Below, piece by piece: positions 4,219 through 35,324 of a stretch of 64,000 nucleotides of DNA. This stretch comes from Terriglobia bacterium (GTDB lineage Bacteria; Acidobacteriota; Terriglobia; Bryobacterales; Bryobacteraceae): assembly GCA_963796675.1 (NCBI GenBank), contig CAWCMS010000020.1, forward strand, positions 630,540 through 694,539, given 5' to 3'. The translations under genes were made by a program, and so were the position numbers. The first letter of the stretch is position 1, and every line of letters begins with the position of its first letter. The notes beneath the pieces were generated by a model that worked only from the letters and a program-made list of their open reading frames with translations, was not told the DNA's origin and ran no database searches.

Positions 4219-8065
<3,847 letters not shown>

Positions 8066-8081
8066 AATTCCTCGTTACCTG

Positions 8082-8636
8082 TCAGGCCTCTGCGCTCAGG
8101 CGGCGTTCCAGCGATTCGAGCTGGCCGCGCACCGAGCCGTCATAAACCTTGGATCCGATCCGCGCCATTACCCCGCCGATCAACGACTGGTCGACCGCGT
8201 ACCGCGCACGAATCCGCTTGCCGGTTAGCCGTTCGAGAGCCGCAGTCAACGCGGCGCGCTGCGGCTCGGTCAGTTCCCGCGGCGACTGTACCTGGGCGCG
8301 GGCATACCCCATCCGCTCGTCGACGATTTCCTCGAACGTGGCCAGAATTTCCGGCACCAGCGGGATGCGGCGGTGATCCAGAAGCACGAACAGAAAATTG
8401 CGCAGAATCCGCGAAACCTTCAGCAATTCGCCGATACGCCCGATCACTGCCCGTTTCCGGCCGATGGGAACCGCCGGAGTCATCAGCACTTCGCGCAGGT
8501 CCGTAGAGGTTTTCAAAGCGTCTTCGAAAGCACGCAATTCCGCCACGGCCGTCTCGGCGGAGAGTCCCGACCCGGCTTGCGTCACGACGTCCGCAAGGGC
8601 ATTCGCGTACCGTGCAGCTACTGCTGAAAGTGTCAT
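8082..8636 (-). CDS. atpH: F1 ATP synthase delta (OSCP) subunit
   Basis: 184 aa, starting [10 protein letters not shown] and ending ...[25 protein letters not shown]. Confidence 0.9.
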
Positions 8637-8642
8637 GTTGTT

Positions 8643-9260
8643 CTAGTTGCCCGGCGTGGCCGGCGCCGGCATGTCCACTCTGCGGACAAAACTCCCGACC
8701 AGCTTTTCCTGGGCTTCATCGGACATGCGGGCGCGGATCTTCTGCCCCGCCAGATCCACGGCCAAGGCCGCGGCGTGGCGCTTCAATTCGAGGCGGGCCG
8801 CCCTCCCGGCCGCATCGATTTCCTGCTCCGCATCCGCTTGAATCCTGGCCATGTCGGTCTCGATCAGGGCCGACAGCCGTTCGGTCTCCGCCGCGGCTTC
8901 ACGCTGCGATTCGGCGCGCAGCGCGGCGATCTCGTTTTCCAGGTTGGCGAGCCGCTTTTCGATTTCCGCGGTGCGCGCTTCGGCGTCCTTCCGCAGGTCT
9001 TCGGCCTCGATCAGGCCCTTCCGGATGATGCGGGTCCGTCCCTCGTAGAAAGGTCCCGCATTCTTGTAGATGAGGTAGCCCAGACCCGCTGCCAGCAGGA
9101 GGAAGTTCGCCCACATCCAGATCAGAGTGGAACCGTGCTCCTCGGCACCAGGAGATTCCCCGTGGACCTGCGCGGCGGCCGTGCCCTTTTCCTGCGCCCG
9201 AAGCACCGGCGAAGTCGCGGCAAGCCCGCAGCAGAGCGCCGCGATCGCCAGAGCTCTCAT
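8643..9260 (-). CDS. atpF: Fo ATP synthase b subunit with an extra signal-peptide-like N-terminal segment
   Basis: 205 aa. The order is MRALAIAALCCGLAATSPVLRAQ, then a His/Glu-rich spacer, then the TM helix IWMWANFLLLAAGLGYLIY, then a long charged coiled-coil. Confidence 0.85.
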   Translation of the reverse strand: MRALAIAALCCGLAATSPVLRAQEKGTAAAQVHGESPGAEEHGSTLIWMWANFLLLAAGLGYLIYKNAGPFYEGRTRIIRKGLIEAEDLRKDAEARTAEIEKRLANLENEIAALRAESQREAAAETERLSALIETDMARIQADAEQEIDAAGRAARLELKRHAAALAVDLAGQKIRARMSDEAQEKLVGSFVRRVDMPAPATPGN

Positions 9261-9706
9261 GCCGCGCTCTCCCGAAGAATAGAATGTGCGATCGCCTCGG
9301 CCAGCGAGTCGCTCTGGGCCGCCAGTTCGGCTTTGGCCGCCTCGGCGTCCTTTGCAATCAGCTGTTTGGCGTCCTGGACCATGGCGTCTGCGCGCTGGCG
9401 CGCCTCCGTCATTTTCGCGGCGTGTTGCTCTTGCAGCCCTTTATGGAGCCGCTCCTGTGCCTCATAGACCTCGGCACGGGCTGAGCGCATCGCCGCTTCG
9501 TACTCTTCGGTCTTGGCGGCAGCACGCTCCAGGCTGAGCTCGGCTTGCTTACGGGCACCGTCGGTCGCCTCGTAACGCTGGTGCAGAACCTTCTCAAGCG
9601 GCTTAAAAAAGACGCCTTTCAAAAAGAAGTGCAGAAGGACGACCAGAATGAATGTAGGCACCGCTTTCAGCAGTAATTCGCCTAGTTGGTGCAGTATGAC
9701 GTCCAT
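9257..9706 (-). CDS. atpF2: Fo ATP synthase b' subunit
   Basis: 149 aa with one TM helix (AVPTFILVVLLHFFL) followed by an A/E/K/Q-rich coiled-coil. Its stop overlaps the atpF start (ATGA). Confidence 0.8.
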   Translation of the reverse strand: MDVILHQLGELLLKAVPTFILVVLLHFFLKGVFFKPLEKVLHQRYEATDGARKQAELSLERAAAKTEEYEAAMRSARAEVYEAQERLHKGLQEQHAAKMTEARQRADAMVQDAKQLIAKDAEAAKAELAAQSDSLAEAIAHSILRESAA

Positions 9707-9860: not shown

Positions 9861-10796
9861 TCAGGCGGCCTGTCCCTTGGCCATTGCTGGAACAAGATTG
9901 AGCGAGCGCCTCGTCTCCGGCCCGGCTCCGTTCTCGGTGATTCCCGCTGATTGCTGCCATTTCTTGACCAGCGCATCCGTGAATGGGCCGTAAACGCCGT
10001 CCGCCGTGCTTTCCAGGCCCTTGGCGGCGAGGGCGCGTTGCAGTGCCGCCACGTCTTCGCCGCGGAGGTAGGGTGTGGTGAGTCGTAGCGTCCTTGCGGA
10101 ATCGCCGGGCGCCGGCGTGTCACCGCCCGCCAGCGCTTCTTCCGTGATCAGGACACCATGGACGCGAAATGGCAGCGTGAGGTCGAAGTTGCCGGCGTCG
10201 ATCAGTGTCTTGAAGGAGTCCATCCGGTAGACCGTGGCGGGGACGGGAGGCTGGCGGCTGGCCAGCCAATCGCGCCGCATCTGCACATATTGTGCGACCC
10301 AATCCTTTTCGCCCCGGGCTGCGACCTTGCCGATCCGCGCCGCCAGCGTCCCCCACCCGCCCTGAACATGGCTGTCATAAACCACGGTTTGGCCGAGCGC
10401 GGTAGTCACACCGAAGGCTTCCGCGTCGCTGCAGGCAGGCCCGAGGAAGGTCTGATTGAAGTACAGATCCTGTGTCGCCTGCATGACGGGGTCTTCCTTC
10501 GCCGCCTTCACCAGTAGGGCTTTTACGTCGGAATCGGTATCGAGCGTAGTGTCCCGCTCCTCGAAGCGATGCAAGAGAGGCTTCAAGTCCGGAGCGAAGA
10601 GTGCACCCGGCTGGGAACAATACAGGTCCAGCAGTTTGAACAGATTGCCGCTGCCCAGGCTGACCTGGCTGCGTCCATACGAGAGATGGCCGCTGTCGCC
10701 TTTGATTACCGTAACGGCGCCGTAGTCGCCTCGGACCTTGCCGGTCTCAAATACGTTGACCACGGCCCGGCACGCCTGTTTTTGTAACGAGTTCAC
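9861..10796 (-). CDS. GH46 (chitosanase/lysozyme-fold) hydrolase fused to a C-terminal PG_binding_1 domain, with no signal peptide
   Basis: GTG start at 10796 with GAGGA 8 nt upstream; the longer track ORF (to 10910) overlaps the upstream gene. From memory of the Streptomyces N174 chitosanase, three segments align. VVNVFETGKVRGDYGAVTVIKGDSGHLSYGRSQVSLGSGNLFKLLDLY matches VSSAENSS..YIEDIGDGRGYTGGIIGFCSGTGDMLELVQHY, and the catalytic Glu and Asp are conserved. ATQDLYFNQTFLGPA matches AQNDERDRVYFDPA, and AGNFDLTLP matches AGNLDLNPP. The C-terminus LRGEDVAALQRALAAKGL..DGVYGPFTDALVKKWQQSAGI is a classic peptidoglycan-binding repeat. Confidence 0.75.
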   Translation of the reverse strand: MNSLQKQACRAVVNVFETGKVRGDYGAVTVIKGDSGHLSYGRSQVSLGSGNLFKLLDLYCSQPGALFAPDLKPLLHRFEERDTTLDTDSDVKALLVKAAKEDPVMQATQDLYFNQTFLGPACSDAEAFGVTTALGQTVVYDSHVQGGWGTLAARIGKVAARGEKDWVAQYVQMRRDWLASRQPPVPATVYRMDSFKTLIDAGNFDLTLPFRVHGVLITEEALAGGDTPAPGDSARTLRLTTPYLRGEDVAALQRALAAKGLESTADGVYGPFTDALVKKWQQSAGITENGAGPETRRSLNLVPAMAKGQAA

Positions 10797-10813
10797 TTCG
10801 ATATCCTCGCTTT

Positions 10814-12997
10814 CTAGGCCGCCCCATGCGAAATCGTGAAGTTCACTTCTGCGCGCTGGCCATCCGGGTTCACCAACGCGAACGTGTGCGAGCCGCCCGC
10901 GGCGAACCACTTACCCACCTGGTCGCGCTGGGCCGAAACCAGTCGCGATGGATCGATCGTGAACCGCAGCGCCTTTGCAAATGTGGGATTCACTTCGTCG
11001 CGGCTAACCACGTCGGGAGCGTTCGCGCCGTCCTGGTTGAAGAGCAATTGGAACGAAAGATCGGCATTGTCGATCTGTGCCAGCCCATCCGGCGAAAGGT
11101 TGGTACCGCGAAGTTCGATGCGGCGCGTAACTACGGCAGGCCTCTCTTCCGCGTTGAGCGGAGCGGCAGCCGCCGTAGCAATGGCGGCAGTCACCCCTGC
11201 GGTAAGATCCTGCAACGCAACAGCCGCCTGCTGGGCGGCCTGCGCCTCGGCCGGACTGGCTTTGGGAGGCGTCGCGGCGAAGTCATTGGCGACCCGCGCG
11301 GCGGTTCCTTCCGCGGTATCGCGGAACTTGGCGAGATCGGCGACCAACTGGTTGAAGTCGTTCGCGGTATGAGCAGCCGCGGCCTCGTCCACTGCCCCCT
11401 TTAAGGCCGCAACCGCCGGCCCAGCCGCGGCGCCCGCTGACGACAGACCGGCCAGTGCCGCCCGGCCACTGACCACGGCTGACACCACGTCAGGCAATGC
11501 CGGGGGAGGCGCCGACTGTGCACGCAAAGCATCATCGGAATCCGGCGGATCCACCCCGATCGCGGAGATAACCGGGCCTGCCTTGCGCGCGATCTTGCCG
11601 CCCAGGTAGCCGACGGACGAGATCCCCATCATAACCAGCAGCCGGTCCGGAATCGTCGGCAGTTCGGTGATCGTGCCGGGAGCCATCTGCAGCACGGCGT
11701 AAACGAACATGCCGATACCCAGTAAGGTCCACAGCAACATTTGCATGCGGTCGGGTGCGACGACGCCCCCACTCGTGACGAAGTCGGCCAGCGAGGGATG
11801 CTGGTCGCCGGCGCCCTTCGACCCCCGAGTGGCAGTCACGATCTGTGAACCGATCGCCGTCCCCGCCGCAACCAGGATGATACCCGGCAGATTAGCCGGA
11901 ACGTCGGGCCAGGTTGGTAAGTGCTGTACATAAACCCGGCTGATGAACAGGTACGAGTAGGCGAACAATGCCGCCACCGTCCACAAATAGAACTGGAGTT
12001 TCGAAAGGCTGTAGGTGTCGGTTTCCTCGTCCAGGAAGAGCATCCGCAACCGGTAGTCTCCCTCCCCGATGCGATAGCTCTTTTTTACAAACATGATCAG
12101 GAGCAAAGGCAGCAGTCCGAGAATGAGCGCGACCAGTGCGGCAATGCTCGTCACGACACTGCTGCCGATCGGAAACACACGGAGCAGTTGCGACGTTCCC
12201 GGGCTATCTCCAAACCCGGCGGCGAAGACCAGTTGGCCGCTATCCGGAGCAGGCACATAGCAAAGCTCGGCCTCGTCGCTGCCGTTCACTTTTCCGTGGA
12301 TCGCGTGGTCCTTAGGCGCGTTCTTGCTGCCGAGTGTTTCCGGGCCGCAGGCGCCGTCCCACTGAATCTTCTGGCGGGCCTCATTGATCCAGACGGCGAT
12401 ACCCTGGCCTTTTTCCGTTGCGGTCTTCTCGTGCTCGGAATCCGAGAAGAGGAACCCGTTTCCGCGCAGAACCACTCCGATGGTCTCGAAGGCTCGCACC
12501 TTTCCGTCCTTCTTTTCGTAGAAGGGCATAGTGCCGTAAATGTCGGCCGGGTCGAACCGGTTGAGCGTCACGACTCCGCCGCCAACCGGCCCAACGACGA
12601 CGTCATCCACCTTCTGGCCTTCCGCTACCAGGGGCTGGCCGTTCAAAATCGCCTGCACCGCATAGGTGCCGAACGGCAGGTCCTGACCGATCGTAGCCGT
12701 GATCAGGCCCGGACTCTGGCCGGCCGCCGGCTGGTAATCCACATCGTTGGCCACCGTGACCGAGCCTGCGCGGATGAGGCGCACCTCGGCGGTTGTTTTC
12801 TGGGTCGGGCCATCTCTCACTACGATGCGAATAGCATCGCCGGACGAGACGTATGCGGTCTCGACTTTGACGGTGCTGATGACCTTTTCCGTGGAAGACG
12901 CAGCCGCCGGAGCGGCCCACACCGCGATTCCCGGAAGCGCCACGCCGGCAAACAAAACAACGCGACTGAGACGATAAGCAGTTTGTCTCGGAATCAT
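10814..12997 (-). CDS. Unknown 727-aa membrane protein: signal peptide, beta-sandwich ectodomains, 5 TM helices, and a cytoplasmic Ala-rich + beta-sandwich tail
   Basis: ATG at 12997 preceded by GAGGAGGG. Begins MIPRQTAYRLSRVVLFAGVALPGIAVWAAPAAASS. TM candidates are VVTSIAALVALILGLLPLLLIMFV, LQFYLWTVAALFAYSYLFISRVYV, GIILVAAGTAIGSQIVTA, MQMLLWTLLGIGMFVYAVLQMA and LLVMMGISSVGYLGGKIA. K/R residues follow TM1, TM3 and TM5 (positive-inside rule). No family motif recognised. Confidence 0.7.
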   Translation of the reverse strand: MIPRQTAYRLSRVVLFAGVALPGIAVWAAPAAASSTEKVISTVKVETAYVSSGDAIRIVVRDGPTQKTTAEVRLIRAGSVTVANDVDYQPAAGQSPGLITATIGQDLPFGTYAVQAILNGQPLVAEGQKVDDVVVGPVGGGVVTLNRFDPADIYGTMPFYEKKDGKVRAFETIGVVLRGNGFLFSDSEHEKTATEKGQGIAVWINEARQKIQWDGACGPETLGSKNAPKDHAIHGKVNGSDEAELCYVPAPDSGQLVFAAGFGDSPGTSQLLRVFPIGSSVVTSIAALVALILGLLPLLLIMFVKKSYRIGEGDYRLRMLFLDEETDTYSLSKLQFYLWTVAALFAYSYLFISRVYVQHLPTWPDVPANLPGIILVAAGTAIGSQIVTATRGSKGAGDQHPSLADFVTSGGVVAPDRMQMLLWTLLGIGMFVYAVLQMAPGTITELPTIPDRLLVMMGISSVGYLGGKIARKAGPVISAIGVDPPDSDDALRAQSAPPPALPDVVSAVVSGRAALAGLSSAGAAAGPAVAALKGAVDEAAAAHTANDFNQLVADLAKFRDTAEGTAARVANDFAATPPKASPAEAQAAQQAAVALQDLTAGVTAAIATAAAAPLNAEERPAVVTRRIELRGTNLSPDGLAQIDNADLSFQLLFNQDGANAPDVVSRDEVNPTFAKALRFTIDPSRLVSAQRDQVGKWFAAGGSHTFALVNPDGQRAEVNFTISHGAA

Positions 12998-13034: not shown

Positions 13035-14060
13035 TCATTCCCCCGCTTCTGCCGCGGCAGCTTGCGCCTCCACGGTATACAGCGGATCGAAGGCATGCAG
13101 TCCTTCGCGCTTCGCGGTCATCCATCGCATCGCATAGACCACGCGCGGATCGGTCAGCCCTTTCGTGATCCAATTGGGAATGACCTCCAGCAACGCGTGC
13201 GCGGCGACGTCCTTGTAATAGTCGATATCCGGCTCGATCTTGACGCAGGAAATCTGGTTCTGATTCTCATCCGTAAAAGTGGTCGTATCGGTTCCGTGGA
13301 AGGTAAGTTGGACGTTGGCCATATCGAACTGAGTCTGCTTGTAGCTTTCCGTCGCGTCGGTGTGTCCCCACGCCTGGGGGTCCGGCTCGCGCGAGAAGCC
13401 ATGGCCGTTTGCGGCCCGAACATCGGGTAGGATCGCCCGATCCACATAACAAAAGAAGCGGTCCTGCTTGAAGATGGTGTCCAGGTTGCGGAACCAGGCC
13501 GGATCCTTCCAATCTCCCGCCGGCCAGGCGATGTTCCAGTAGTATTCGAGCGCACACTTGCCGGATGGAAGCACGATGTCCGCCAGGGCCGTCACGATAT
13601 TCAGAAAACAGGCCAGAGCTGCCGGCCGGTTCTCCATCACCGCCGAGTACTTGTCCGCGCTCGCCTCAGGGCTTTCGCAACCGCGCCGGATCATTTGAGC
13701 CACTCCCGAGCGGGACTGCTGGAGCTTGCTCCACGTGGCGTTGGCGAAGTGCGGAACCCCGTCTTTCGGCAGAAACATCAGGTCCAGATTCACGGGCGCT
13801 TCGTCGGTAACGGGCACGGGATACCACGCGGAGTTGTCATAGCCGCCGGCTTCGGCGATCACCGTGTACAGGTCTCCGAAGTTATCGAAATACGGCACCG
13901 TGAGGATTGCCGACGCGCCCGTAACATTGAAGTAGAGAGTTTGCTGCCCGTCCGCTTGTGACCTGCCGTCGCGAGTCTGTACGGACCATCTCTTGTCGTT
14001 GGGAAACAACTGCCGCGCCCCATCGTAGGCGTGCAATACGATATTCGCTGTGTCCGGCAT
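13035..14060 (-). CDS. Unknown 341-aa soluble protein
   Basis: ATG at 14060 preceded by GGGGAGG. No signal peptide, no TM segment and no motif I recognise. The spacer to the upstream gene is 24 nt and to the downstream gene 37 nt. Confidence 0.65.
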   Translation of the reverse strand: MPDTANIVLHAYDGARQLFPNDKRWSVQTRDGRSQADGQQTLYFNVTGASAILTVPYFDNFGDLYTVIAEAGGYDNSAWYPVPVTDEAPVNLDLMFLPKDGVPHFANATWSKLQQSRSGVAQMIRRGCESPEASADKYSAVMENRPAALACFLNIVTALADIVLPSGKCALEYYWNIAWPAGDWKDPAWFRNLDTIFKQDRFFCYVDRAILPDVRAANGHGFSREPDPQAWGHTDATESYKQTQFDMANVQLTFHGTDTTTFTDENQNQISCVKIEPDIDYYKDVAAHALLEVIPNWITKGLTDPRVVYAMRWMTAKREGLHAFDPLYTVEAQAAAAEAGE

Positions 14061-14084: not shown

Positions 14085-16334
14085 CTACAACTGCCCCGCT
14101 GCTGCCTGGACCGCCGCCGCGGGCACCACGGCGAGAGCGGGCGGGTGCCCGCGCTCCACCAGGAAGGTCTTGCACGATGCCTTTCCGTAAGCGGTGTCCG
14201 GCGATCCTCCCGCCCAATACAGGCACACCATTCCCCACGGCTCCGCAAACCGCATCTTACTGGCCTTGACCATCGCGGCCAGGGCCTTTTGCAGGGAGTC
14301 GCGCTTCTTCTTGAATTCGTTGTTCTGCATCAACTGGTTGACGTCGGAATCTCCGACGAACTTGCGCATGTCCAGCACCAGCTTCCCGGCGTCAGCCATG
14401 CCGCCCGCCCAGTCGACGATGTCCATCACATCGCCAATCAGAAACTCCACGCGTGGATCGGCGGTACTCAACCCCACCAGAGGTCCGAGGTTGACATTGG
14501 CGCCGATCTCATACGCCTGCGGCCACTTATCGTCGACGATCCGATAGCGCAGTTGATCGATCGCCTGATGGTCGGGATCGAGAAGTGCGCGCAAAGCCTG
14601 CCGGGCAGTCGTCAGGTAGTGATCCTGATCCCAGAGCGTATCAGCGGTCCTGAGGAACATCGATGCACAGTCGGAATCCGTGAACGAAGTTCGAAGAATG
14701 CACGTGGAAGGTCCGCCGTCGATGAACTGAGCGAGAATGCTTGCCTTATCGGGCTTGCTTAATAGGTTTAAGGCCACAAACCAACTCAGGTAGTCCCCCA
14801 TGGTCTGGTGGTTCGTGCTCTGATTCAGAGCAAAGTGCATCTGCTCGCAGTCCAGCTCGGGGAGAGCCACGGCCTTCCCCGCGCGGTAACTGGTCGTCAT
14901 GAGGACGGAATCGAAGATCGCCTTGCGCAGAGCCTCGTGCCGGTCGAGCGGACTGACAATCGCGTTGATCCGGTTCCCGGTGACCGTCTCCTTGATGGTA
15001 ATGTCTCCACTGACGTCATCCGTTACCACCTCGCTGTTCCGGATCAACTCGGAAACGCTCAGGTAGTTCAGAATCCCGAGGAGGTTCAGCTTGAGCGTCG
15101 ATCCCCGCTTTCGCATCTCCGAAAACGCACTGTTGAGCATCCGGATTCCCGGAGCCAGAATGCCGCCGTCCTGCATGGTGGCCTCCATTTCCGTGAGCCC
15201 GGTGAGATCTCCGTCCAATGCTCTGTGAACCGCGGCGGAGCCCTCGGCGCTCAACTGCCCCGTCTGGACCACATACTGGAACGCCGCCTGGTCGTCGGTC
15301 ACGGCCGACAGGGCCAGATCGAGCGATGCCTGCAAACTGTGGTCTAATCCGCTCTTGATTGCGGTTGCGAGCGTCGTGAGCTCTTGCGGATTCAGATCGG
15401 AAAGAAGCTGCTGGTCTTTCGTCGGGTCGCTGGTGCTGATGGCCCCCAGCAGCGCCGCGATCAGATCGGTATCCCCGATGGACGCCTGGATACCCGCTGA
15501 GGCGGAAAGGTCGACGGTGAGGTTGGTCCCTTTCTCTTTCAGATAACTGAGCTGGATCGTGCCCGGTCCCGTGCGTTGCACCCTCACCTGGTATGAGCCC
15601 GAAATCGTGAACGCGGCCGACAATCCGGCCGTGGCTCCGGCTTTCACCGCAACCGTTCCCAGTCCCAAAGGCAAATCCGCCGACGCCAGGGGATTCGGCG
15701 AGGCGGTCACACTGACGGCACCCGATATCTTCAGGCTCCCGCTGCCCGATACCGTGGCGATGTCGTTAGTTCCCAGTAAGTCGAGGTCCGAAACATCGGC
15801 GGGAATGACAAAGCACGATAACGCCTGGCCCAGCGCACTTCCCACTGTAGGCTCGCCCGCGCCTGACTCGAAAGCTTTCCAGTATTCCAGAGCGATGCTG
15901 CCCGACTTATCGAGACCGAACGTGAGATCACCGGCCGAGCCGCTCACACCGAGGTCGAGCGATCCCTGGAACCCGACCGACAAGTAGCCGGTGCCGGGCG
16001 CAATCGTCGCTGGAACCTGGAATGGATCGCCGTCGAAAAGGTCCGCGTTGGGCGCGGTATTCACTTGGATCGTCGCGTGAGCGCCCGGCGTCACGTCAAT
16101 CTCCGGGTTGGTGCTGCCGAGTTCGAACTCATGCTGGACGTTGGCGTCGAACCGGACCGGTTTCTTGTTTCCCACTTGACTAATTGGAATATCTTTGACC
16201 CCCAGAAAGTCGGGGAGGACGGCAAGGTGGAGAAGTTCCGTCTTGAGATATTTGACCAAAGACGAAGGATGGGCCAGATCTATCTGGATACCGGGCACGG
16301 GAATGCCCTGATCGGTTACTTGTATGTCGGCCAT
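14085..16334 (-). CDS. Unknown 749-aa soluble protein (G/S/T/A-rich beta-type N-terminal half, helical C-terminal half)
   Basis: ATG at 16334 with AGGAG about 10 nt upstream. No signal peptide, no TM segment, no Walker, HExxH or other catalytic motif recognised. First gene of the operon. Confidence 0.7.
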   Translation of the reverse strand: MADIQVTDQGIPVPGIQIDLAHPSSLVKYLKTELLHLAVLPDFLGVKDIPISQVGNKKPVRFDANVQHEFELGSTNPEIDVTPGAHATIQVNTAPNADLFDGDPFQVPATIAPGTGYLSVGFQGSLDLGVSGSAGDLTFGLDKSGSIALEYWKAFESGAGEPTVGSALGQALSCFVIPADVSDLDLLGTNDIATVSGSGSLKISGAVSVTASPNPLASADLPLGLGTVAVKAGATAGLSAAFTISGSYQVRVQRTGPGTIQLSYLKEKGTNLTVDLSASAGIQASIGDTDLIAALLGAISTSDPTKDQQLLSDLNPQELTTLATAIKSGLDHSLQASLDLALSAVTDDQAAFQYVVQTGQLSAEGSAAVHRALDGDLTGLTEMEATMQDGGILAPGIRMLNSAFSEMRKRGSTLKLNLLGILNYLSVSELIRNSEVVTDDVSGDITIKETVTGNRINAIVSPLDRHEALRKAIFDSVLMTTSYRAGKAVALPELDCEQMHFALNQSTNHQTMGDYLSWFVALNLLSKPDKASILAQFIDGGPSTCILRTSFTDSDCASMFLRTADTLWDQDHYLTTARQALRALLDPDHQAIDQLRYRIVDDKWPQAYEIGANVNLGPLVGLSTADPRVEFLIGDVMDIVDWAGGMADAGKLVLDMRKFVGDSDVNQLMQNNEFKKKRDSLQKALAAMVKASKMRFAEPWGMVCLYWAGGSPDTAYGKASCKTFLVERGHPPALAVVPAAAVQAAAGQL

Positions 16335-16464: not shown

Positions 16465-19400
16465 TTACTTCTTAATCGAAAGTACCATTCCGCTCGGCGA
16501 CGAGACCCCGCCGATTGCTGCCACGATCGGCCAGTCGCCGTCGGCCAGCGTCGACGGCACCTGGATTGCCACCTGGTACAGTCCCACGAAGCCGGGGGCC
16601 AGCGCCGCCCCGTAGACTGTCGCCGGGACGTTATCGATCGTTACCGTGGGCGGCGTGCTCGTGGAGTAGGTCTGGGTCGAAGGCACCTGCACCCCCGTCG
16701 GCGCCGCGGGACTCGTCGGGCCGAAGCCCGTGCCCCAGAGGATGAGTACGTCTCCGGGCTTCGCCGGCACTGTCGTGGATCCGGCCCAGGTGCCGTTCTT
16801 GGCCGCAAAGCTGTAATCCTGGAGTGTCGCCACTACCTGATTGTTCGGCCACGGGAAGAATGCCGGAGCATACAGGCTCGAGGCCACCGTGAATGTCGAA
16901 CTTGTGCCGGAGGGCGTGGTCACCGTGACCTGCGTGGAGCCCTGCGCCACGTCCGGCGCCAGGATGTTGATCTGTGTCGGACTCACGTAATAGATGTACG
17001 CCGGCTTGTCCCCCACTTTGACCGACACGCCGTCGAGGGACGTGGGCAGCACGCCGTTGACGATCGCGTTCGCCCAGGTATCGGTCACCGGCGAGAGGTT
17101 CGCGCCCAGGATCGTCACCCAGGAGTTTGCCACCAGCCCTGCCTGGAAACTCGCGCCGTTCACGATCCCGTTCGACGAAATGCCCGGCGCGGCCGATCCG
17201 CCGCCGCCCGTCGTCACCTTGCGTACCCGATTGTTGGACGTATCGGCGATATACAGGTTGCCCGCGCTGTCCACCGCCACGTCGCTGGGATTGTTCAGCC
17301 CGGCGTTCACCGCGGGGCTCCCGTCGCCCGAGAAGCCGGCGATCCCGTTGCCTGCCACCGTCGTGATGATTCCGGACGTGTCCACCTTCCGGATCCGGTT
17401 ATTCGCGGCGTCCGCGATGTAGAGGTTGCCGGACGAGTCCGTCGCGAGCCCCGCGTGCGATCCGTACAAGGCGATCGCCGCCGAGGTGCCCGCTCCGCCG
17501 TCACCGGAATAGGCCTTGGAGCCCATGCCCGCCACCGTCGAAATGATGCCCGCCGTATTTACCTTGCGCACCCGGTAATTGCCGATATCCGCAATGTAGA
17601 GGTTCCCCGATGCATCCACCGCGACTCCTCCGGGCAGGAAGAGCCCCGCTCCCACGGCCGGGCCGCCATCGCCCGAATAGATCGGCAGCACCGCCCCGCC
17701 CGCCACCGTGCTGATGACTCCTGCAGTGTCCACCTTGCGGACGCGGGAATTCGCGCTGTCGGCGATGAACAGGTTCCCCGCACTATCCACCGCCAGACCG
17801 GCCGGCGCCCAGAGCGTCGCGCTGGTCGCCGGTCCGCCATCCCCCGAGAATCCGACCTTCCCGTTGCCCGCCACCGTGTTGATGTTTCCCGAGGTATCCA
17901 CCTTGCGCACTCGGTTATTGGTGCTGTCGGCGATGTAGACATTGCCCGCGCGATCGGCGGCCACCGCGCTCGGATTGAACAGCGCCGCTTTCGTCGCCGG
18001 CCCGCCATCGCCCGAGAAGCTGATCGCCCCGTTGCCCGCGAGCGTCGTAATCGTGCCCGCTGTATCGATTTTCAGCACGCGGCTGCTCACCATATCCGCG
18101 ACGTAGAGGTTCCCCGCGCCATCCACCGCGACCGCGTTCGCCCCCAGCGCAGCCTTCGTGGCCGAGCCTCCTTCGCCGGAATACGGAATGAATCCGTTGC
18201 CCGCCGCCGTCGAGATGACGCCCTGACTGGCGGGAGAGTTGACTGTCAACTTCACCGGCACCGTTTGCGGCGTATTACCCGACCCGCTCGGCGTGATCGT
18301 GATGGTGCCGTTATAACTGCCCGCCGCGAGGCCAGCGGGATTCACCGAGACCGTCAGCGTCGTTCCCACCGTGCCGCTCGACGGACTGACCGAAAGCCAG
18401 TTCCCTCCCGAGGTGGTCGAAGGCGTCGCCGTAAACGTCAGGGTCGCTCCCGGACTGATGATGACCACAGTCTGACCCGGCGGCGCCGCGGCCCCCACCG
18501 TATAGGAGTACGAGAGCGACGACGGACTAACCGTCACCGGCGATCCCGAGGCGCCCGACAACACTTTGCGCACGCGGGCTGCCCCACTGTCCGCAATGTA
18601 TACGTTGCCTGCCGCGTCCACCGCCACACTCGTAATGTTGATGAAGTTTGCGCTGGTGGCTGCTCCGCCATCGCCATTGCCCTGCCCGGTATTCAACCCG
18701 CCGCCCGCAAATGTGCTGATGATCCCGGACGTGTTCACTTTGCGAACGCGCGCTCCTCCCGTATCGGCAAGGTAGAGGTTGCCGTCGGCATCCACAGTCA
18801 CCCAGGTAACCGTCATCCCCGCCTTCGTGGCCGGGCCTCCGTCACCGATCGCGATCGGAGTGCCGCTGCCCGCCACCGTCGTGATGATCCCGTTGGTATC
18901 CACTTTGCGGACGTGTGTGGCGTTGTCCGCAAAATAGAGATTACCCTGGCGGTCCACCGCCAGCCCCTGCGGCAGATACAGCTTCGCGCTGGTCGCCGGA
19001 CCGCCATCCCCCGAGTAGCCCTGCTGGCCGCTGCCCGCCACCGTAGTAATGATTCCGCTGGTGTCGATCTTGCGGATACGGTTGTTCAGGCTATCGGCCA
19101 GATATAGATTTCCGGCGCTATCCGCCACGACGTTCGTGCACAGAAACGTGGCACTCGTCGCCGGACCGCCATCGCCCGAAAAGCCCGGCAGTCCGGTTCC
19201 CGCGACGGTGCTGATCACCCCCGCCGTGTTGACCTTGCGGATACTCGCACCTTGCGCGATGTACAGATTGCCGGCGCCATCCACCGTCACACTGCCTGGA
19301 AAAACCTGCGCGTTCGTCGCCAATCCACCGTCGCCGCCGCCGATCGCACTCCCGCCGCCCGCCACGGTGGTAATGATGCCGGACGCATCGACCTTGCGGA

Positions 19401-19614
19401 TCCTGTTGTTGCCTCCGTCCGAGATCAGCAGGTTTCCCGAGTTATCGACCGCGACCGTAAGTGCACCGCCGAGCTTCGCGCTGGTCGCCTGGCCGCCATC
19501 GCCCGAGTAACCGCCGCTGCCGGTCCCCGCTACGGTAGTGATGGTCGCCTGCGCATGGCAGGGCGCCGCGGCAGTAAGTACCGCAAAGAAAGAGAGATAA
19601 GGAGTAAGTTTCAT
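16465..19614 (-). CDS. Secreted double NHL-propeller protein (6+6 blades) with a BACON-like Ig domain and a TIGR03437-like C-terminal domain
   Basis: Start at 19614 (MKLTPYLSFFAVLTAAAPCHAQ), 9 nt after the stop of the upstream paralogue; the track ORF to 19956 is an over-extension. There are twelve copies of the unit GDGGPATSA..P.G.AVD.AGNLYIAD..N.R.RKV...G.I.T.AG. The Ig-type segment reads SLSYSYTVG...GGNWLSVSPSSGT..TLTVSVNPAGL. The tail reads IVNGASFQ...YVSPTQINILAP...GFVGLYQVAIQVP. Confidence 0.85.
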   Translation of the reverse strand: MKLTPYLSFFAVLTAAAPCHAQATITTVAGTGSGGYSGDGGQATSAKLGGALTVAVDNSGNLLISDGGNNRIRKVDASGIITTVAGGGSAIGGGDGGLATNAQVFPGSVTVDGAGNLYIAQGASIRKVNTAGVISTVAGTGLPGFSGDGGPATSATFLCTNVVADSAGNLYLADSLNNRIRKIDTSGIITTVAGSGQQGYSGDGGPATSAKLYLPQGLAVDRQGNLYFADNATHVRKVDTNGIITTVAGSGTPIAIGDGGPATKAGMTVTWVTVDADGNLYLADTGGARVRKVNTSGIISTFAGGGLNTGQGNGDGGAATSANFINITSVAVDAAGNVYIADSGAARVRKVLSGASGSPVTVSPSSLSYSYTVGAAAPPGQTVVIISPGATLTFTATPSTTSGGNWLSVSPSSGTVGTTLTVSVNPAGLAAGSYNGTITITPSGSGNTPQTVPVKLTVNSPASQGVISTAAGNGFIPYSGEGGSATKAALGANAVAVDGAGNLYVADMVSSRVLKIDTAGTITTLAGNGAISFSGDGGPATKAALFNPSAVAADRAGNVYIADSTNNRVRKVDTSGNINTVAGNGKVGFSGDGGPATSATLWAPAGLAVDSAGNLFIADSANSRVRKVDTAGVISTVAGGAVLPIYSGDGGPAVGAGLFLPGGVAVDASGNLYIADIGNYRVRKVNTAGIISTVAGMGSKAYSGDGGAGTSAAIALYGSHAGLATDSSGNLYIADAANNRIRKVDTSGIITTVAGNGIAGFSGDGSPAVNAGLNNPSDVAVDSAGNLYIADTSNNRVRKVTTGGGGSAAPGISSNGIVNGASFQAGLVANSWVTILGANLSPVTDTWANAIVNGVLPTSLDGVSVKVGDKPAYIYYVSPTQINILAPDVAQGSTQVTVTTPSGTSSTFTVASSLYAPAFFPWPNNQVVATLQDYSFAAKNGTWAGSTTVPAKPGDVLILWGTGFGPTSPAAPTGVQVPSTQTYSTSTPPTVTIDNVPATVYGAALAPGFVGLYQVAIQVPSTLADGDWPIVAAIGGVSSPSGMVLSIKK
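17209..19545 (-). repeat. Intragenic tandem NHL-blade repeats (two blocks of six, about 55-58 codons each)
   Basis: The protein-level periodicity is listed under the CDS. Blocks map to roughly 18559-19545 and 17209-18222, separated by the Ig-like domain. The repeats are coding, not intergenic. Confidence 0.7.
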
Positions 19615-19622
19615 GGGTAACC

Positions 19623-22600
19623 TTATTGAACCGGCAGATTCTTTGAATAGGCCTGGACCGCGGAGAAGCCCGCGAAGGCCGCTTTCCCTCCGCCCGTCAA
19701 CGGCGCGGTGAAGGGCTGCGAATTGACTACCTCGACCGCCAGCGTCGTCGAACCGTTCGCGAGCGACGCGGCGTCCAGCGTGCCCGGCAGCAGGCTCGCG
19801 AGCACCGCAGCGGGAATCGTGTAGGAACCCGGCGCCGCCGGGACCTGGCAGGTAAAGCCCGTCGTGTGGAGGATGTTGGAGTTCGACGCATCCTTCCCCA
19901 CCACCGCATAGCTTCCTCCGATAATGTAGACTTGGCCCGATCCGCCGCCGGTCCAATTCAGGGTGAGCGGCTGGCTCCGGTTGATGGAAGATACCGAACT
20001 CCAGTTAGTAATTACGAAGTTATTCGGAAACGTAACCGAGGCGGTGAACGATCCTACGCCCTTACCGCCGCTGCCGGCGATCGTATAATTGCCGCCGGCC
20101 GCAATTGTCCCGCTGTTGAGCACCAGCCCGTAGATCGGACCTGGATTGCTGCTGAGCACCGTCATCGCCGCGCCCGCCGCCAGTCCCGGGCCCGCGACCG
20201 GCAGAGTCGCCCCCGCATCCAGGTAGGCGTTCGGCGCAGCCGGATTGGACGCGTTCGTCCCCGTCCGGTCCGTCACCGTGCAATCGCCGATCCGTGTGCC
20301 CGCGAAGATCGCCGCGTATTCCGCCGCGGTATAGACACTGAAGCCCCCGCTGACGATCTCCTGACTTGCGGTGGTCGTAGTCGGCGTAGTCCCCACGATG
20401 TAAGTCGAGATGGCCTGGGTCTTGGAAACCTCGAGCCCGCCGCCCACCACGGTGCCTCCGTTATCCAGCGACGCGAGCGCGCTCGAATCCAGTTGGGAGT
20501 CGGTACATGCGCTCTGCCCGCCCGCCGCAATCGGGATGGTCACCGTATTGCTCAGCTCTCCGCCCGCACTGACCTGCAACGAGGTGAAGCATCCCGTCGT
20601 GATATCGGAGGGAATCGTAAAGTTCACCTGCCAGAGCCCCGGATACCCCGACGAAGCGCCCGCATAGAGAGGCGTGATCGGCCGACCTCCCACGATCACG
20701 CTGAAATTGCCCGCCTGGGTCTGATCTCCGGATGTGCCGCCCGTATCGTTGGCCGCGTCGGCGCCGCCGCCCGTGCCCCACAGCACCAGCGTGTCGCCGG
20801 GATGAGCAGGCGTGAGCGTCCAATTCAGTCCGCCGAACCCAATGCTGCCGCTGGTGAACCGCGTGAGGCTCACCCCGCCGTTCACATTGCCGATGGTGGC
20901 CTGCGCCGTCCCGGTTCCCGCGCTGTTCGCGGTCGCGATGCCGAAGCTGCGCGCCACGACCGTCACGTTTTGCGGCGCACTGGCCAGGGTGTTGTAAGTC
21001 ACCCGCACCGCATAGGTGCCCGGTGCAATCGAGGATGGCAAGAGCCCCGCCACCTGCCCCGCCGACGTATACACGATCTTTGCATTGATCGCGGTGCCGC
21101 CTCCCTGCGGAGTAAACGTGATCGAAGTTCCGCTCAAACTTTGCGGGTAGTTCGGACCGCTGCCGGTGGCGAGCGCCGCCGGCCCCATGCCGCTGCCGAA
21201 GATCACGAACACCGTATCCGGCGCCAGCTTCGCCTGGTACCCCAGGGCGTTGAGGACGCTGCTCGCGCTGAAGACAGGAGCGCCCGCGCCCGTCACCGTC
21301 AGCGTCACCGAAAAGGTCTGCGGCGATGTTCCGGAAGAGCTTGGCGTCAACGTGACCGCTCCCTGATACACGCCGCCGGGCAGCCCCGCCGGGTTGACCG
21401 ACACCGTCAGCGTAGCCGGAGCCGTTCCGCTCGCGGGGCTGACCGACAGCCAGTTGCCGCCCGAAGTCGTCGAGGCCGCTGCCGTAAAGCCCAGGCCAGA
21501 GCTCGAAGCCGTCACGCTGACGGTTTGACTCGCCGGACTCGCGCCGCCGATCGTGTAAGCGAACGAGAGCGAAGTCGGACTCGTCGACAGGCCCACTGCG
21601 GCCGCGATCTTCCGAACCCGCGCCACGCCCCCCGCGCTCCCCGCCACATAGAGGTTGCCCGACGCATCCAGCACGACGTCTTTCGGGACGCCGAGAAACG
21701 CGCTGGTTGCCGGCCCTCCGTCGCCGATCGGCGTCGATGCGTTACCATCGATTCCCGCGTAGGTTGAGATGATCCCCGCGGCGTCCACCTTGCGGATCCG
21801 GCTGTTGCCGTTGTCGGCGATGTAGAGATTGCCCGAGTGGTCCACCGCCAGCCCGATCGGTCCGGACAGCGTAGCCGCCGTCGCCGGACCTCCGTCGCCC
21901 GTGAACCCGTTGGTCTTGGTGGTCTGCCCCGCGATCGTGTGGATGATGCCGGCCGTATCCACCTTCCGCACGCGCGAATTGCTGGTCTCCGAAATGTAAA
22001 CGTTGCCTGCATCGTCGGTCGCTACGCCCTCCGGCCGGGACACTGCCGACGTATTCGCCGCCACGCCGTCGCCCGAATAGCTGACGTTCCCGTTGCCGGC
22101 GAAGGTGCTGATGATCCCCGCCGCCGTCACCTTGCGTACACGGCTATTCGAGGAGTCCGCGATATAGAGGTTGCCCGCGCTATCGAGCGCGATCCCGGCC
22201 GGGAAGTCGAGTTGCGCGCTGGTGGCCTGGCCGCCGTCGCCTGAAAATCCCGGCGCCCCGGTCCCCGCCACGGTGCTGATGATCCCCGCGGCGTTGACCT
22301 TGCGCACCACGTGGTTCTCACCGTCGCTGATGTACAGGTTCCCGGCCGAATCCACTGCCAGCCCGTATACGCTCCCGTTGGCAAAGATTTGCGCGCTAGT
22401 GGCCGAACCGCCATCCCCCGTGTAGCCCGGCATCCCGTTCCCCGCCACCGTCGTGATCACACCGGACGGGTTCACCTTGCGGACCTTGCTCGATTGCCCG
22501 TCCCAGATGTACAAATTCCCCGACCGGTCGAGTGTGATTCCCCCCGCCGACGGCAGCCATGTGCTGGTCGCCTGCCCGCCGTCCGCCGAATTGCAGCAGG

Positions 22601-22691
22601 TCGAAGACCCCGCCACCGTCACGATCGTCCCCTGCGCATGGCACAAGCCGGCCGCCATCCCAAACACCGCGATCCGTAACCCGTTTTTCAT
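19623..22691 (-). CDS. Secreted NHL-propeller protein (6 blades) with a BACON-like Ig domain, a TIGR03437-like domain and a C-terminal region of about 310 aa that I cannot assign
   Basis: Begins MKNGLRIAVFGMAAGLCHAQ, followed by six NHL units, then SLSFAYTIGG..GGNWLSVSPASGTAPATLTVSVNPAGL, then ...YPGLWQVNFTIP. It is a paralogue of the downstream gene. Confidence 0.85.
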   Translation of the reverse strand: MKNGLRIAVFGMAAGLCHAQGTIVTVAGSSTCCNSADGGQATSTWLPSAGGITLDRSGNLYIWDGQSSKVRKVNPSGVITTVAGNGMPGYTGDGGSATSAQIFANGSVYGLAVDSAGNLYISDGENHVVRKVNAAGIISTVAGTGAPGFSGDGGQATSAQLDFPAGIALDSAGNLYIADSSNSRVRKVTAAGIISTFAGNGNVSYSGDGVAANTSAVSRPEGVATDDAGNVYISETSNSRVRKVDTAGIIHTIAGQTTKTNGFTGDGGPATAATLSGPIGLAVDHSGNLYIADNGNSRIRKVDAAGIISTYAGIDGNASTPIGDGGPATSAFLGVPKDVVLDASGNLYVAGSAGGVARVRKIAAAVGLSTSPTSLSFAYTIGGASPASQTVSVTASSSGLGFTAAASTTSGGNWLSVSPASGTAPATLTVSVNPAGLPGGVYQGAVTLTPSSSGTSPQTFSVTLTVTGAGAPVFSASSVLNALGYQAKLAPDTVFVIFGSGMGPAALATGSGPNYPQSLSGTSITFTPQGGGTAINAKIVYTSAGQVAGLLPSSIAPGTYAVRVTYNTLASAPQNVTVVARSFGIATANSAGTGTAQATIGNVNGGVSLTRFTSGSIGFGGLNWTLTPAHPGDTLVLWGTGGGADAANDTGGTSGDQTQAGNFSVIVGGRPITPLYAGASSGYPGLWQVNFTIPSDITTGCFTSLQVSAGGELSNTVTIPIAAGGQSACTDSQLDSSALASLDNGGTVVGGGLEVSKTQAISTYIVGTTPTTTTASQEIVSGGFSVYTAAEYAAIFAGTRIGDCTVTDRTGTNASNPAAPNAYLDAGATLPVAGPGLAAGAAMTVLSSNPGPIYGLVLNSGTIAAGGNYTIAGSGGKGVGSFTASVTFPNNFVITNWSSVSSINRSQPLTLNWTGGGSGQVYIIGGSYAVVGKDASNSNILHTTGFTCQVPAAPGSYTIPAAVLASLLPGTLDAASLANGSTTLAVEVVNSQPFTAPLTGGGKAAFAGFSAVQAYSKNLPVQ
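21606..22631 (-). repeat. Intragenic tandem NHL-blade repeats (six copies)
   Basis: Same repeat unit as in 17209-19545; coding. Confidence 0.65.
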
Positions 22692-22845
22692 CTCTCTGAA
22701 CTCCCCTCTAAACTGCTGCCTCGTCGCTCGGGTTTCGATAAAATACCCAGAAGAAGCGCGGGCGAATTGCTGAGAGCGATGCTTTCACGGATTGCCGCTG
22801 ACGGGGTCTGAAGAGCTATCAAGAATTCTAAAGAACGATAAGCCT

Positions 22846-25591: not shown

Positions 25592-25625
25592 AGCCCGTGG
25601 GGCAGGTTTCAACCTGCGACGGGCT
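25592..25625. terminator. Long hairpin between the convergent kinase and serpin genes
   Basis: AGCCCGT-GGG-GCAGGT-ttca-ACCTGC-G-ACGGGCT. The serpin stop codon (TCA on the plus strand, 25609-25611) sits in the loop. Confidence 0.45.
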
Positions 25626-26814: not shown

Positions 26815-26905
26815 TGTGCAACATTCCCCCACTGCGGAATGCCGCGGGACGTGCAACCCTTTCGCGAGAATTGCACTCCGACGCTTGGCTATACTTGAGC
26901 CAGAT

Positions 26906-34989: not shown

Positions 34990-35324
34990 AACTAACCTCC
35001 CAGTCACCCGTCTTGATTGTTTGGAGTTGGTCCGGAGGGAAAGTAGAAGGGATAGTGCGAAAGATCCGCCTGCCAAACGGCCGGTGCCGTTTGCCGCGAG
35101 GCAATTTCGTACTGTGCGACACCCGAGTCGCCTGCATTCCCCTCCAGGGCGGTGTTGACCCGTTGAAACGATTCAATCCGCGGTGGAGCTAGAATATAGC
35201 GGGCGCTCCCCCGTGTCAAGAACAAAGCTCGCCCTCGTATCATTTTTCGTTCACTTCCGTCTTGTAGGTTTCAACGCCGGCGAAGTACACTGAGAAGCGC
35301 AAACCGCACGATCAGAGGTCTGGG

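Follow-up and report, generated by a model that had tools for sequence, protein, structure and literature searches.

How a cell-wall hydrolase that carries no export signal reaches the wall, and which polymer an enzyme of the chitosanase family would cut once there, are the questions raised by a gene from a Terriglobia bacterium (Acidobacteriota; Bryobacteraceae). The gene lies in a stretch of 64,000 nucleotides (nt; assembly GCA_963796675.1, contig CAWCMS010000020.1, positions 630,540 to 694,539 of the forward strand), hereafter the window, and encodes a protein named here GH46-PGB, in which a catalytic domain of glycoside hydrolase family 46 (GH46) is followed by a peptidoglycan-binding domain. 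Directly upstream lies the gene for a large membrane protein, termed here the scaffold, and the two genes recur together in different bacterial lineages. On balance, the pair is probably a cellular cassette of non-phage origin, composed of a murein hydrolase of the GH46 subgroup known as cluster E and a membrane protein that controls its access to the wall. The enzyme gene and its elements are located in the window as follows.

9861..10796, minus strand: GH46-PGB gene, a leaderless open reading frame (ORF) of 311 codons with a GTG start (from the ORF and its translation, and Pfam)
10804..10808, minus strand: Shine–Dalgarno sequence GAGGA, 7 nt 5' of the GTG at 10796 (read from the sequence)
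10167..10760, minus strand: GH46 catalytic domain, residues 13–210 (from Pfam, a family profile against PDB chitosanases, invariant residues and fold)
10746..10748, minus strand: codon of E17, the catalytic Glu
10695..10697, minus strand: codon of D34, the catalytic Asp
9903..10064, minus strand: PG_binding_1 domain, residues 245–298 (from Pfam)

The preliminary description of this stretch had proposed a GH46 enzyme with a C-terminal PG_binding_1-type repeat, and both domains are recovered well above the Pfam cut-offs (27 bits for Glyco_hydro_46 and 23 bits for PG_binding_1). The Glyco_hydro_46 profile (PF01374) matches residues 13–210 over profile positions 3–210 of 210 (E 8.5e-13, 48.9 bits), and the best sequence match in the PDB is the B. 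subtilis chitosanase 7c6c, found with E 1.6e-8 by the single sequence and with E 8.8e-18 by a profile of 16 GH46-PGB homologues. When the AlphaFold model of the protein, which is of moderate confidence (predicted local distance difference test, pLDDT, of 74.5), was compared with known structures using Foldseek, ranks 1–9 were all occupied by GH46 chitosanases (E ≤ 0.001, TMt 0.67–0.72), the identity to the solved chitosanases in the structural alignments being 21–25%. A full-domain match to the hidden Markov model above threshold, the two-lobed helical fold of the lysozyme superfamily and the catalytic residues are all present, and the window protein is, judging from its conserved residues and predicted fold, a GH46-fold enzyme with an intact Glu/Asp catalytic pair.

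The roles of individual residues were mapped from the GH46 residue table of Viens, Lacombe-Harvey & Brzezinski 2015 (PMC4663542). The general acid, E17, is contained in the motif VFETG that had been singled out beforehand; it is invariant in the 16 homologues and aligns directly with the catalytic Glu. The general base, D34, lies in the likewise predicted motif KGDSGH and is equally invariant; the HMMER alignment places it one column away from the catalytic Asp, and an ungapped alignment anchored on the following Gly-Arg, which shifts it by one residue, makes the correspondence exact. The position of the water-positioning Thr/Ser is taken by S39, which is Ser or Thr in all homologues, and the Arg–Asp–Arg network of the major lobe is preserved in the invariant residues D141, R174 and R191, which align with D148, R193 and R208 of the OU01 chitosanase. 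Two further motif pairings of the preliminary description, GSGNLF with GTGDML and AGNFDL with the C-terminal GN(F/T)DL, proved to be correctly aligned.

The PG_binding_1 domain (E 7.2e-10, 39.4 bits) also matches PHROG endolysin families and the peptidoglycan-binding modules of 5nm7, 7rum and 6tci, and in NCBIfam only sub-threshold matches, to this part of the protein, were obtained. The protein database contains 307 relatives of GH46-PGB, nearly all of about 300 amino acids (aa) and with both domains, and a scan of GTDB with one genome per species yielded 80 loci in Acidobacteriota, Alpha-, Beta- and Gammaproteobacteria, Desulfobacterota, Nitrospirota, Verrucomicrobiota and Bacteroidota; the window protein is a member of the acidobacterial type, 41–60% identical to its GTDB relatives. 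Multimodular GH46 proteins with peptidoglycan-binding modules and a non-conserved Asp at subsite −2, named 'peptidoglycan-binding protein' or 'chitosanase' in databases, were described in 2015 as cluster E (PMC4663542). Since it combines the catalytic residues with such a module and a non-conserved −2 Asp, the window protein is a further member of that class, an assignment that refers to these features and not to a placement in the authors' tree. Some relatives in Burkholderiales (L034, L046, L052, L053, L063, L068, L073, L076, L083) and in Roseateles and its relatives (L074, L081, L082, L084, L086) carry small N-terminal domains of 60–110 aa followed by an Ala-rich linker, which are not signal peptides, are of two types (Cys-rich, with C..C ... 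PG.C, or starting with MAHxERITDVP) and may be alternative adaptors. The computed isoelectric point of the GH46 domain ranges from 6.3 to 9.3 and, as matched values for characterized chitosanases are lacking, is not used as evidence.

While the catalytic machinery is retained, the residues by which GH46 enzymes recognize glucosamine (GlcN) are not. The Asp at subsite −2 contacts the amino group of GlcN and gives GH46 its preference for this sugar (PMC4663542); this residue (Asp57 in CsnN174, Asp60 in OU01) corresponds to N51 in the window protein and to Asn, His, Thr, Val, Arg, Gly or Ala across the 16 homologues. The position of CsnN174 Arg42, beside the catalytic Asp, is occupied by an invariant G36 in the ungapped register, and Glu197 and His200 of subsite −1 are replaced by the invariant prolines P183 and P186. 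The marks of the chitosanases of clusters A–D, namely the −2 Asp, Arg42, Glu197/His200 and a Sec or Tat signal peptide, are thus absent. The substrate had been expected to be N-deacetylated murein or a GlcN-rich envelope polymer; the loss or variability of the GlcN-binding residues (N51, G36, P183, P186) speaks against this proposal, and the pairing of GSGNLF with GTGDML given in the preliminary description already displays the change from Asp to Asn. With the determinants of GlcN specificity lost, ordinary murein is the simpler reading, and the glycan strand of ordinary peptidoglycan is most likely to be the substrate, rather than a GlcN-rich polymer.

Two proteins provide precedents for the action of a chitosanase-like fold on murein, the second by its gene arrangement only. 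VgrG3 of V. cholerae combines chitosanase catalytic-site residues with a peptidoglycan-binding domain and degrades peptidoglycan (PMC12663445, PMC6099711), and its structure, 4nso, is a weak fold match to the GH46-PGB model (TMt 0.62, probability 0.30). On a viral contig (IMGVR_UViG_3300020577_008362; L092, 7896..9832), a GH46-like gene with 34% identity and no binding module lies downstream of an SSB gene and upstream of two further ORFs, one of 157 aa containing two hydrophobic segments and one of 223 aa that starts with a lipoprotein-type signal. PHROG contains no match for the GH46-like ORF or for the two that follow it, and by gene arrangement the trio is a candidate for a phage lysis cassette whose endolysin would be of GH46 type. 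For the GH46 catalytic domain of the window protein, no PHROG family and no match among GenBank phages were found, and two viral predicted structures have the GH46 fold.

The absence of an export signal is equally consistent across the family. The GTG start at 10796 is supported by the GAGGA sequence 7 nt before it. The reading frame is open back to a GTG at 10910, which would give a 349-aa form whose extension overlaps the upstream gene, and between 10796 and 10910 there is no further in-frame start codon. A scan of both starts revealed no hydrophobic segment in either the 311-aa or the 349-aa form, so that no Sec, Tat or signal-anchor sequence is present at any possible start, in agreement with the signal peptide reported missing beforehand and with the check then suggested for alternative starts. 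In most of the 86 related loci the ORF opens with MxxLQ, with at most one extra residue, directly at the catalytic helix, and the N-terminal extensions of some relatives are not signal peptides; the lack of a leader is hence characteristic of the family and no accident of annotation. A scan for promoters and terminators scored no better than shuffled sequence, and among public sequencing runs the only match was to DNA from soil, in a run containing 9% of the sampled words, with no RNA run found.

The second component, the scaffold, is divided into the following parts.

10814..12997, minus strand: scaffold, a 727-aa membrane protein starting with ATG at 12997, with GAGGAGGG 7 nt upstream (AlphaFold model, homologue family)
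12899..12997, minus strand: Sec-type signal peptide
12173..12871, minus strand: predicted periplasmic β-sandwich (Ig/IPT-like), residues 43–275 (secondary structure of the model, Foldseek, weak TIG/CFSR matches)
11588..12163, minus strand: predicted five-helix membrane core with two cytoplasmic β-hairpin loops (model, invariant columns, bias of Lys and Arg)
11144..11536, minus strand: Ala-rich helical module, residues ~488–618, in the predicted cytoplasmic tail (GH46-linked scaffolds only)
10829..11125, minus strand: C-terminal β-sandwich, residues 625–723 (model; kept also in scaffolds without the helical module)

The scaffold gene, the open frame of which reaches back to 13096, ends 17 nt before the start of the GH46-PGB gene. 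Searches of Pfam, NCBIfam, PHROG and PADLOC with its product gave no match; a library scan of 59 homologues gave weak TIG/CFSR matches only, in some members, and the AlphaFold model (pLDDT 87) retrieved generic tandem Ig-like structures with Foldseek and none for the membrane core. In the model the helices span residues 279–302, 331–357, 370–391, 415–436 and 451–470, and the most conserved motifs, DTYSLSKLQFYLWT and GSKGAG..PS.ADF..GGV.APDR.Q..LWT, sit on the two β-hairpin loops of the core. Over the 59 homologues the mean number of Lys and Arg residues after helices 1–5 is 3.98, 0.05, 1.24, 0.37 and 1.92, a bias that by the positive-inside rule corresponds to an N-out/C-in arrangement and indicates periplasmic N-terminal domains and a cytoplasmic tail, as predicted from the sequences of the family.

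The core family is large: among 1.84 billion representative proteins, 415 clusters match at E ≤ 1e-30, and the number rises to 658 when the limit is relaxed to E ≤ 1e-10. By size and by homology the scaffold is no holin. Searches of 50,697 phage records, of the PLSDB plasmids and of IMG/VR yielded no relative of it, and no phage genes occur in the window, which speaks against a phage origin of the pair.

An upstream membrane protein on which the access of the enzyme to its substrate would depend had been suggested in the preliminary description, and it turned out to be a genuine, conserved partner. Fourteen GTDB genomes, belonging to Acidobacteriota, Steroidobacteraceae, Verrucomicrobiota and Desulfuromonadales, have the scaffold directly upstream of the GH46 gene, as do the metagenomic loci that were inspected first. 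The pair is also present in the cultured Geomonas sp. RF6, where the scaffold is LPW11_21560 of CP087999 and the GH46-PGB gene lies 0.7 kb downstream. When metagenomic loci were collected with the scaffold as the query, a GH46 gene followed immediately in 50 of 80, and among the 49 closest scaffold relatives only two lack it, one because its contig ends too soon and the other as a real exception. The spacing is tight: in 33 of the 68 loci with both genes these overlap by 4 nt, and nearly all others are separated by a gap of no more than 48 nt. Clustering of neighbouring ORFs in the 86 GH46 loci revealed no universally conserved neighbour and no conserved gene downstream of GH46, antisense ORFs in GC-rich DNA being noise.

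The remaining 30 metagenomic scaffolds are more distant: their core is ~50–60% identical and the C-terminal β-sandwich is kept, while the helical bundle is absent. Downstream of such scaffolds, other leaderless ORFs take the place of GH46.

L146 and L147: leaderless SLT domain with two PG_binding_1 domains, 556 aa, overlapping the scaffold gene by 23 nt
L151, L152 and L158: PG_binding_1 and GH19, endolysin phrog_181, E 3e-30 (L151 scanned; L152 and L158 assigned by size and position)
L145 and L153: PG_binding_1 and an unknown domain
L168: GH108 and PG_binding_3, endolysin phrog_315, E 4e-45
L171, 3481..5604: ORF of 708 aa with a weak patatin-like match
L142, L144, L160, L162, L164 and L170: ORF without a recognizable domain

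By these domain assignments, the putative murein hydrolases that accompany this one conserved membrane core belong to four or more catalytic families. The downstream ORFs of non-hydrolase type include those in L164 (5675..8824, 1050 aa), L162 (6030..7364, 445 aa) and L170 (5046..5645, 200 aa), and the scaffold family may also serve partners that are not lysins.

The part of the scaffold that follows helix 5 varies with the enzyme. In the 53 scaffolds that precede GH46 this tail comprises at least 254 aa (median 258), and in 13 of 14 scaffolds without GH46 it comprises 106–146 aa, the exception being L168 with 240 aa. The helical module that accounts for the longer tails also forms the C-terminus of 1124-aa proteins (jackhmmer against the scaffolds, E 1e-37 to 1e-20), which take the place of the scaffold immediately before GH46, the two genes overlapping by 4 nt, in L001 (6630..10004), L007, L009 and L075 (Vicinamibacterales) and in which no signal peptide, membrane segment or Pfam domain was detected. 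In a third arrangement, represented by P0077 and P0081 (L091, 5321..6679), the module is fused N-terminally to GH46 in proteins of 452 aa, with no scaffold nearby. Since it accompanies GH46 in three architectures, always on the predicted cytoplasmic side, the helical module is best read as a putative element for docking or controlling the enzyme. A conserved gene of 207–276 aa precedes the 1124-aa partners (L001, 5805..6608) and has a relative in L003. An apparent fusion of scaffold and GH46 in L011 (7571..10891, 1106 aa) was set aside, as it looks like a frameshift in the last domain of the scaffold, caused by pseudogene formation or an assembly error.

Taken together, the cassette proposed at the outset would work as follows. 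The enzyme would be a cluster E glycosidase which has kept the inverting Glu/Asp machinery, has lost the GlcN subsites and cuts the ordinary glycan strand of murein, and its PG_binding_1 module would steer it to the murein of the bacterium itself. Made in the cytoplasm without an export signal, presumably from the same message as the scaffold, it would be docked at the inner face of the membrane by the helical module, and the scaffold would decide when and where it gets to the wall, the likely purpose being a controlled opening of the wall or programmed autolysis. Of this picture, the identity of the domains, the conserved residues, the leaderless state, the gene pairing, the exchange of lysin types and the association of the helical module with GH46 are observed, and the substrate, docking, gating and purpose are deduced. 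A broader proposal, which we put forward tentatively and hold to be somewhat doubtful, is that the scaffold is the founding member of an undescribed, widespread family that exports or gates leaderless and exchangeable murein hydrolases (GH46, GH19, GH108 and SLT types) without a phage holin, adding docking modules specific for the lysin.

Several observations weigh against this interpretation. Cluster E has no member for which activity was reported (PMC4663542), and in the model of the enzyme residues 26–47, which include D34, have pLDDT values below 50. The scaffold is much larger and much more conserved than known holins and is unlike any known pore former. The side of the membrane to which the tail is assigned depends on the positive-inside rule and on helix 5, which is weakly hydrophobic (mean Kyte–Doolittle value 0.63), and the IPT-like β-sandwich of the tail is a fold commoner outside the cell. 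At several scaffold loci, no hydrolase domain can be recognized in the ORF that follows. Conversely, about 60 of the 80 GTDB homologues of GH46-PGB, mostly from Proteobacteria, stand beside neither a scaffold nor a 1124-aa partner and adjoin unrelated housekeeping genes, which implies that the enzyme can work in other settings.

In the window, the genes on the minus strand follow the order p749, p341, scaffold, GH46, atpF', atpF, atpH, atpA and atpG, where p749 and p341 are named after the lengths of their products.

13035..14060, minus strand: p341, 341 aa, no family match; a possible accessory gene, not conserved with the pair
14085..16334, minus strand: p749, 749 aa, no family match; a frequent, not obligate, neighbour

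The gaps between p341 and its neighbours are 24 and 37 nt, and L027 and L140 were the only loci in which it has a relative. Relatives of p749 adjoin GH46 in L008, L012, L013 and L027; p749 was nevertheless rejected as an obligate member of the system, as three relatives stand alone in other genomes. A similarity by eye between p749 and the N-terminal part of the 1124-aa partners was also dismissed, the phmmer comparison being non-significant (E 0.8–8). The p749 family, of ~740 aa and with 58–71% identity among the listed relatives, is common in Acidobacteriota of the Bryobacteraceae type, where its members usually occur alone and sometimes near PIN/MazE, SLATT or patatin genes.

The ATP synthase genes atpF', atpF, atpH, atpA and atpG (5680..9706, minus strand), with atpD beyond them, start 154 nt after the end of the GH46 gene; neither atpB nor atpE precedes atpF', and the genes of the membrane sector must therefore sit elsewhere in the genome. 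On the other side, the segments 16465..22691 (minus), 22792..25584 (plus), 25609..26958 (minus) and 31300..35076 (minus) form a stretch of genes typical of Acidobacteriota, including two very large β-propeller proteins of NHL/teneurin type in which BACON_2 and TIG domains occur, a bacterial serpin, a Ser/Thr kinase that combines TPR repeats with a DNA-binding domain (Trans_reg_C) at its N-terminus, and an outer-membrane protein of 1258 aa with CarboxypepD_reg and OMP_b-brl_4 domains. A different context is found in a Steroidobacteraceae-like lineage (L005/L006, 959..7845, and L015), where genes for PNP_UDP_1, an 856-aa protein of unknown type, TIR_2, LD_cluster2 (SLOG-like) and Peptidase_C1 precede the pair on the same strand and the pair is closely followed by a Lipase_3 gene on the opposite strand; this gene set has a suggestive flavour of a conflict system. 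A PADLOC search with the four window genes and with the partner and neighbour proteins of L001, L003 and L005 gave a single weak match, to ThsB TIR.

The gene set of that lineage is one argument for abortive infection, in which an infection signal would cause the scaffold to free the lysin, so that the cell lyses before phage progeny mature. The varied chromosomal contexts of the pair would suit such a role, as would the toxin–antitoxin, SLATT and patatin genes found near p749 relatives and the ThsB TIR match; however, PADLOC was negative for the scaffold, the enzyme, p341 and p749, the conflict-type neighbours are confined to one lineage, and many loci, including the window with its ATP synthase genes, are flanked by housekeeping genes, which makes this explanation quite unlikely. 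The swapping of one lysin type for another, on the other hand, is typical of polymorphic toxin loci, and together with VgrG3, a precedent for a chitosanase-like and peptidoglycan-binding protein delivered as a toxin, it raises the question of whether GH46-PGB is an effector delivered to neighbouring cells, from which the producer is protected by the periplasmic Ig-like domain of the scaffold. Indeed, the periplasmic region varies between subfamilies with different lysins, as a cognate inhibitor would. Nevertheless, the conserved part of the scaffold is the membrane core with its cytoplasmic loops and not the periplasmic domain, the module specific for GH46 is placed in the cytoplasm, where a wall hydrolase needs no inhibitor, and a periplasmic part is missing altogether from the soluble 1124-aa partners and from the fusions. 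As no genes for type VI, type VII or other delivery systems (neither VgrG nor PAAR nor Hcp in the case of type VI) were found in the window or in the examined loci, an effector–immunity pair is considered unlikely.

The one-to-one pairing and translational coupling of the two genes, together with the large periplasmic Ig-like region of the scaffold, could also be expected if the enzyme opened a gap in the murein for an envelope-spanning structure to which the scaffold belongs, in the manner of FlgJ, VirB1 and TagX; the lytic enzymes of such machines likewise span several catalytic types. This alternative is distinctly improbable, since the surroundings of the pair contain no other conserved components of a machine, an exit from the cytoplasm would still be required for the enzyme, and the GH46-specific docking module is on the cytoplasmic side. 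Very improbable is the reading suggested by the family name, that of a genuine chitosanase with which the cell would feed on, or attack, polymers containing GlcN, of fungal or other origin, and which would be released by lysis or by an unknown route. GH46 membership, the catalytic pair, the JGI annotation of the homologues as 'chitosanase' and the ability of some hosts (Roseateles chitinivorans, Mitsuaria) to degrade chitin or chitosan agree with it, whereas the family lacks the signal peptide of the characterized GH46 enzymes, which are secreted, has lost the GlcN-binding residues Asp57, Arg42, Glu197 and His200, carries a murein-binding module instead of CBM32 chitosan-binding modules and shares its membrane partners with murein hydrolases of SLT, GH19 and GH108 type.

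The cassette of murein hydrolase and controlling membrane protein, which we continue to prefer, bears on the way in which hydrolases without a leader get to the wall when no phage lysis is involved and touches on programmed autolysis, the release of vesicles and DNA, and type 10 secretion. If the scaffold does belong to a gating family, it would constitute a new route by which a folded cytoplasmic lysin is brought to the wall of its own cell, possibly for programmed autolysis, the release of cell contents or defence. Cluster E gains a testable hypothesis, with murein rather than chitosan as the substrate, a specific partner and a cultured host, Geomonas sp. RF6, and murein-acting GH46 domains are potentially useful as lytic enzymes. 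In addition, a large and highly conserved family of membrane proteins unannotated in databases is revealed, the consistent genomic partner of which is a murein hydrolase of changing type. Within the limits of the literature searches, no published description was found of the membrane partner, of its pairing with exchangeable lysins or of the GH46-specific module.

Among known systems, the secreted GH46 chitosanases (CsnN174, 1chk; OU01, 4olt; Csn, 7c6c) have in common with the window enzyme the fold, the Glu/Asp pair, the Thr/Ser and the Arg–Asp–Arg triad; in contrast to them, it lacks a signal peptide, has other residues in place of Arg42, Asp57, Glu197 and His200, and carries an additional murein-binding module. 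The proteins of cluster E share its GH46 catalytic residues, peptidoglycan-binding module and non-conserved −2 Asp, while the review in which the cluster was defined (PMC4663542) mentions neither a family-wide absence of leaders nor the conserved membrane partner nor the helical docking module. The C-terminal domain of V. cholerae VgrG3 (4nso), with its TsiV3/TsaB, also unites a chitosanase-like lysozyme fold with a peptidoglycan-binding domain; it has no detectable sequence match to GH46-PGB, the similarity being weak and structural, and VgrG3 is fused to a type VI secretion spike and has a periplasmic immunity protein, neither of which accompanies the window enzyme.

The modular endolysins of phages of Gram-negative bacteria (KZ144, 3bkh; AP3gp15, 5nm7; LysT84, 7rum) are likewise leaderless muralytic enzymes with a PG_binding_1 domain which, together with their holins, share with the window pair the apparent dependence on an adjacent membrane protein and the GH19, GH108 and SLT types. 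They differ in that the catalytic domain is here of family GH46 and the peptidoglycan-binding module is C-terminal, and the cassette departs from that of holin and endolysin in having a conserved five-helix protein of 727 aa with large soluble domains as the partner, with neither a spanin nor a prophage context. Type 10 secretion, as found in Salmonella (ChiA/TtsA) and Yersinia entomophaga (PMC10109510, PMC10847048), relies on cassettes of holin, endolysin and spanin that cells have co-opted. It likewise joins a chromosomal, non-prophage membrane protein to a leaderless murein hydrolase and serves to open the wall or lyse the cell in a controlled way, whereas the window pair shows no homology to phage holins or spanins and has no conserved cargo gene beside it. 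By analogy with these systems, the scaffold and GH46-PGB may be viewed as a functional analogue of the holin–endolysin and type 10 secretion cassettes, built around a membrane component unrelated to holins.

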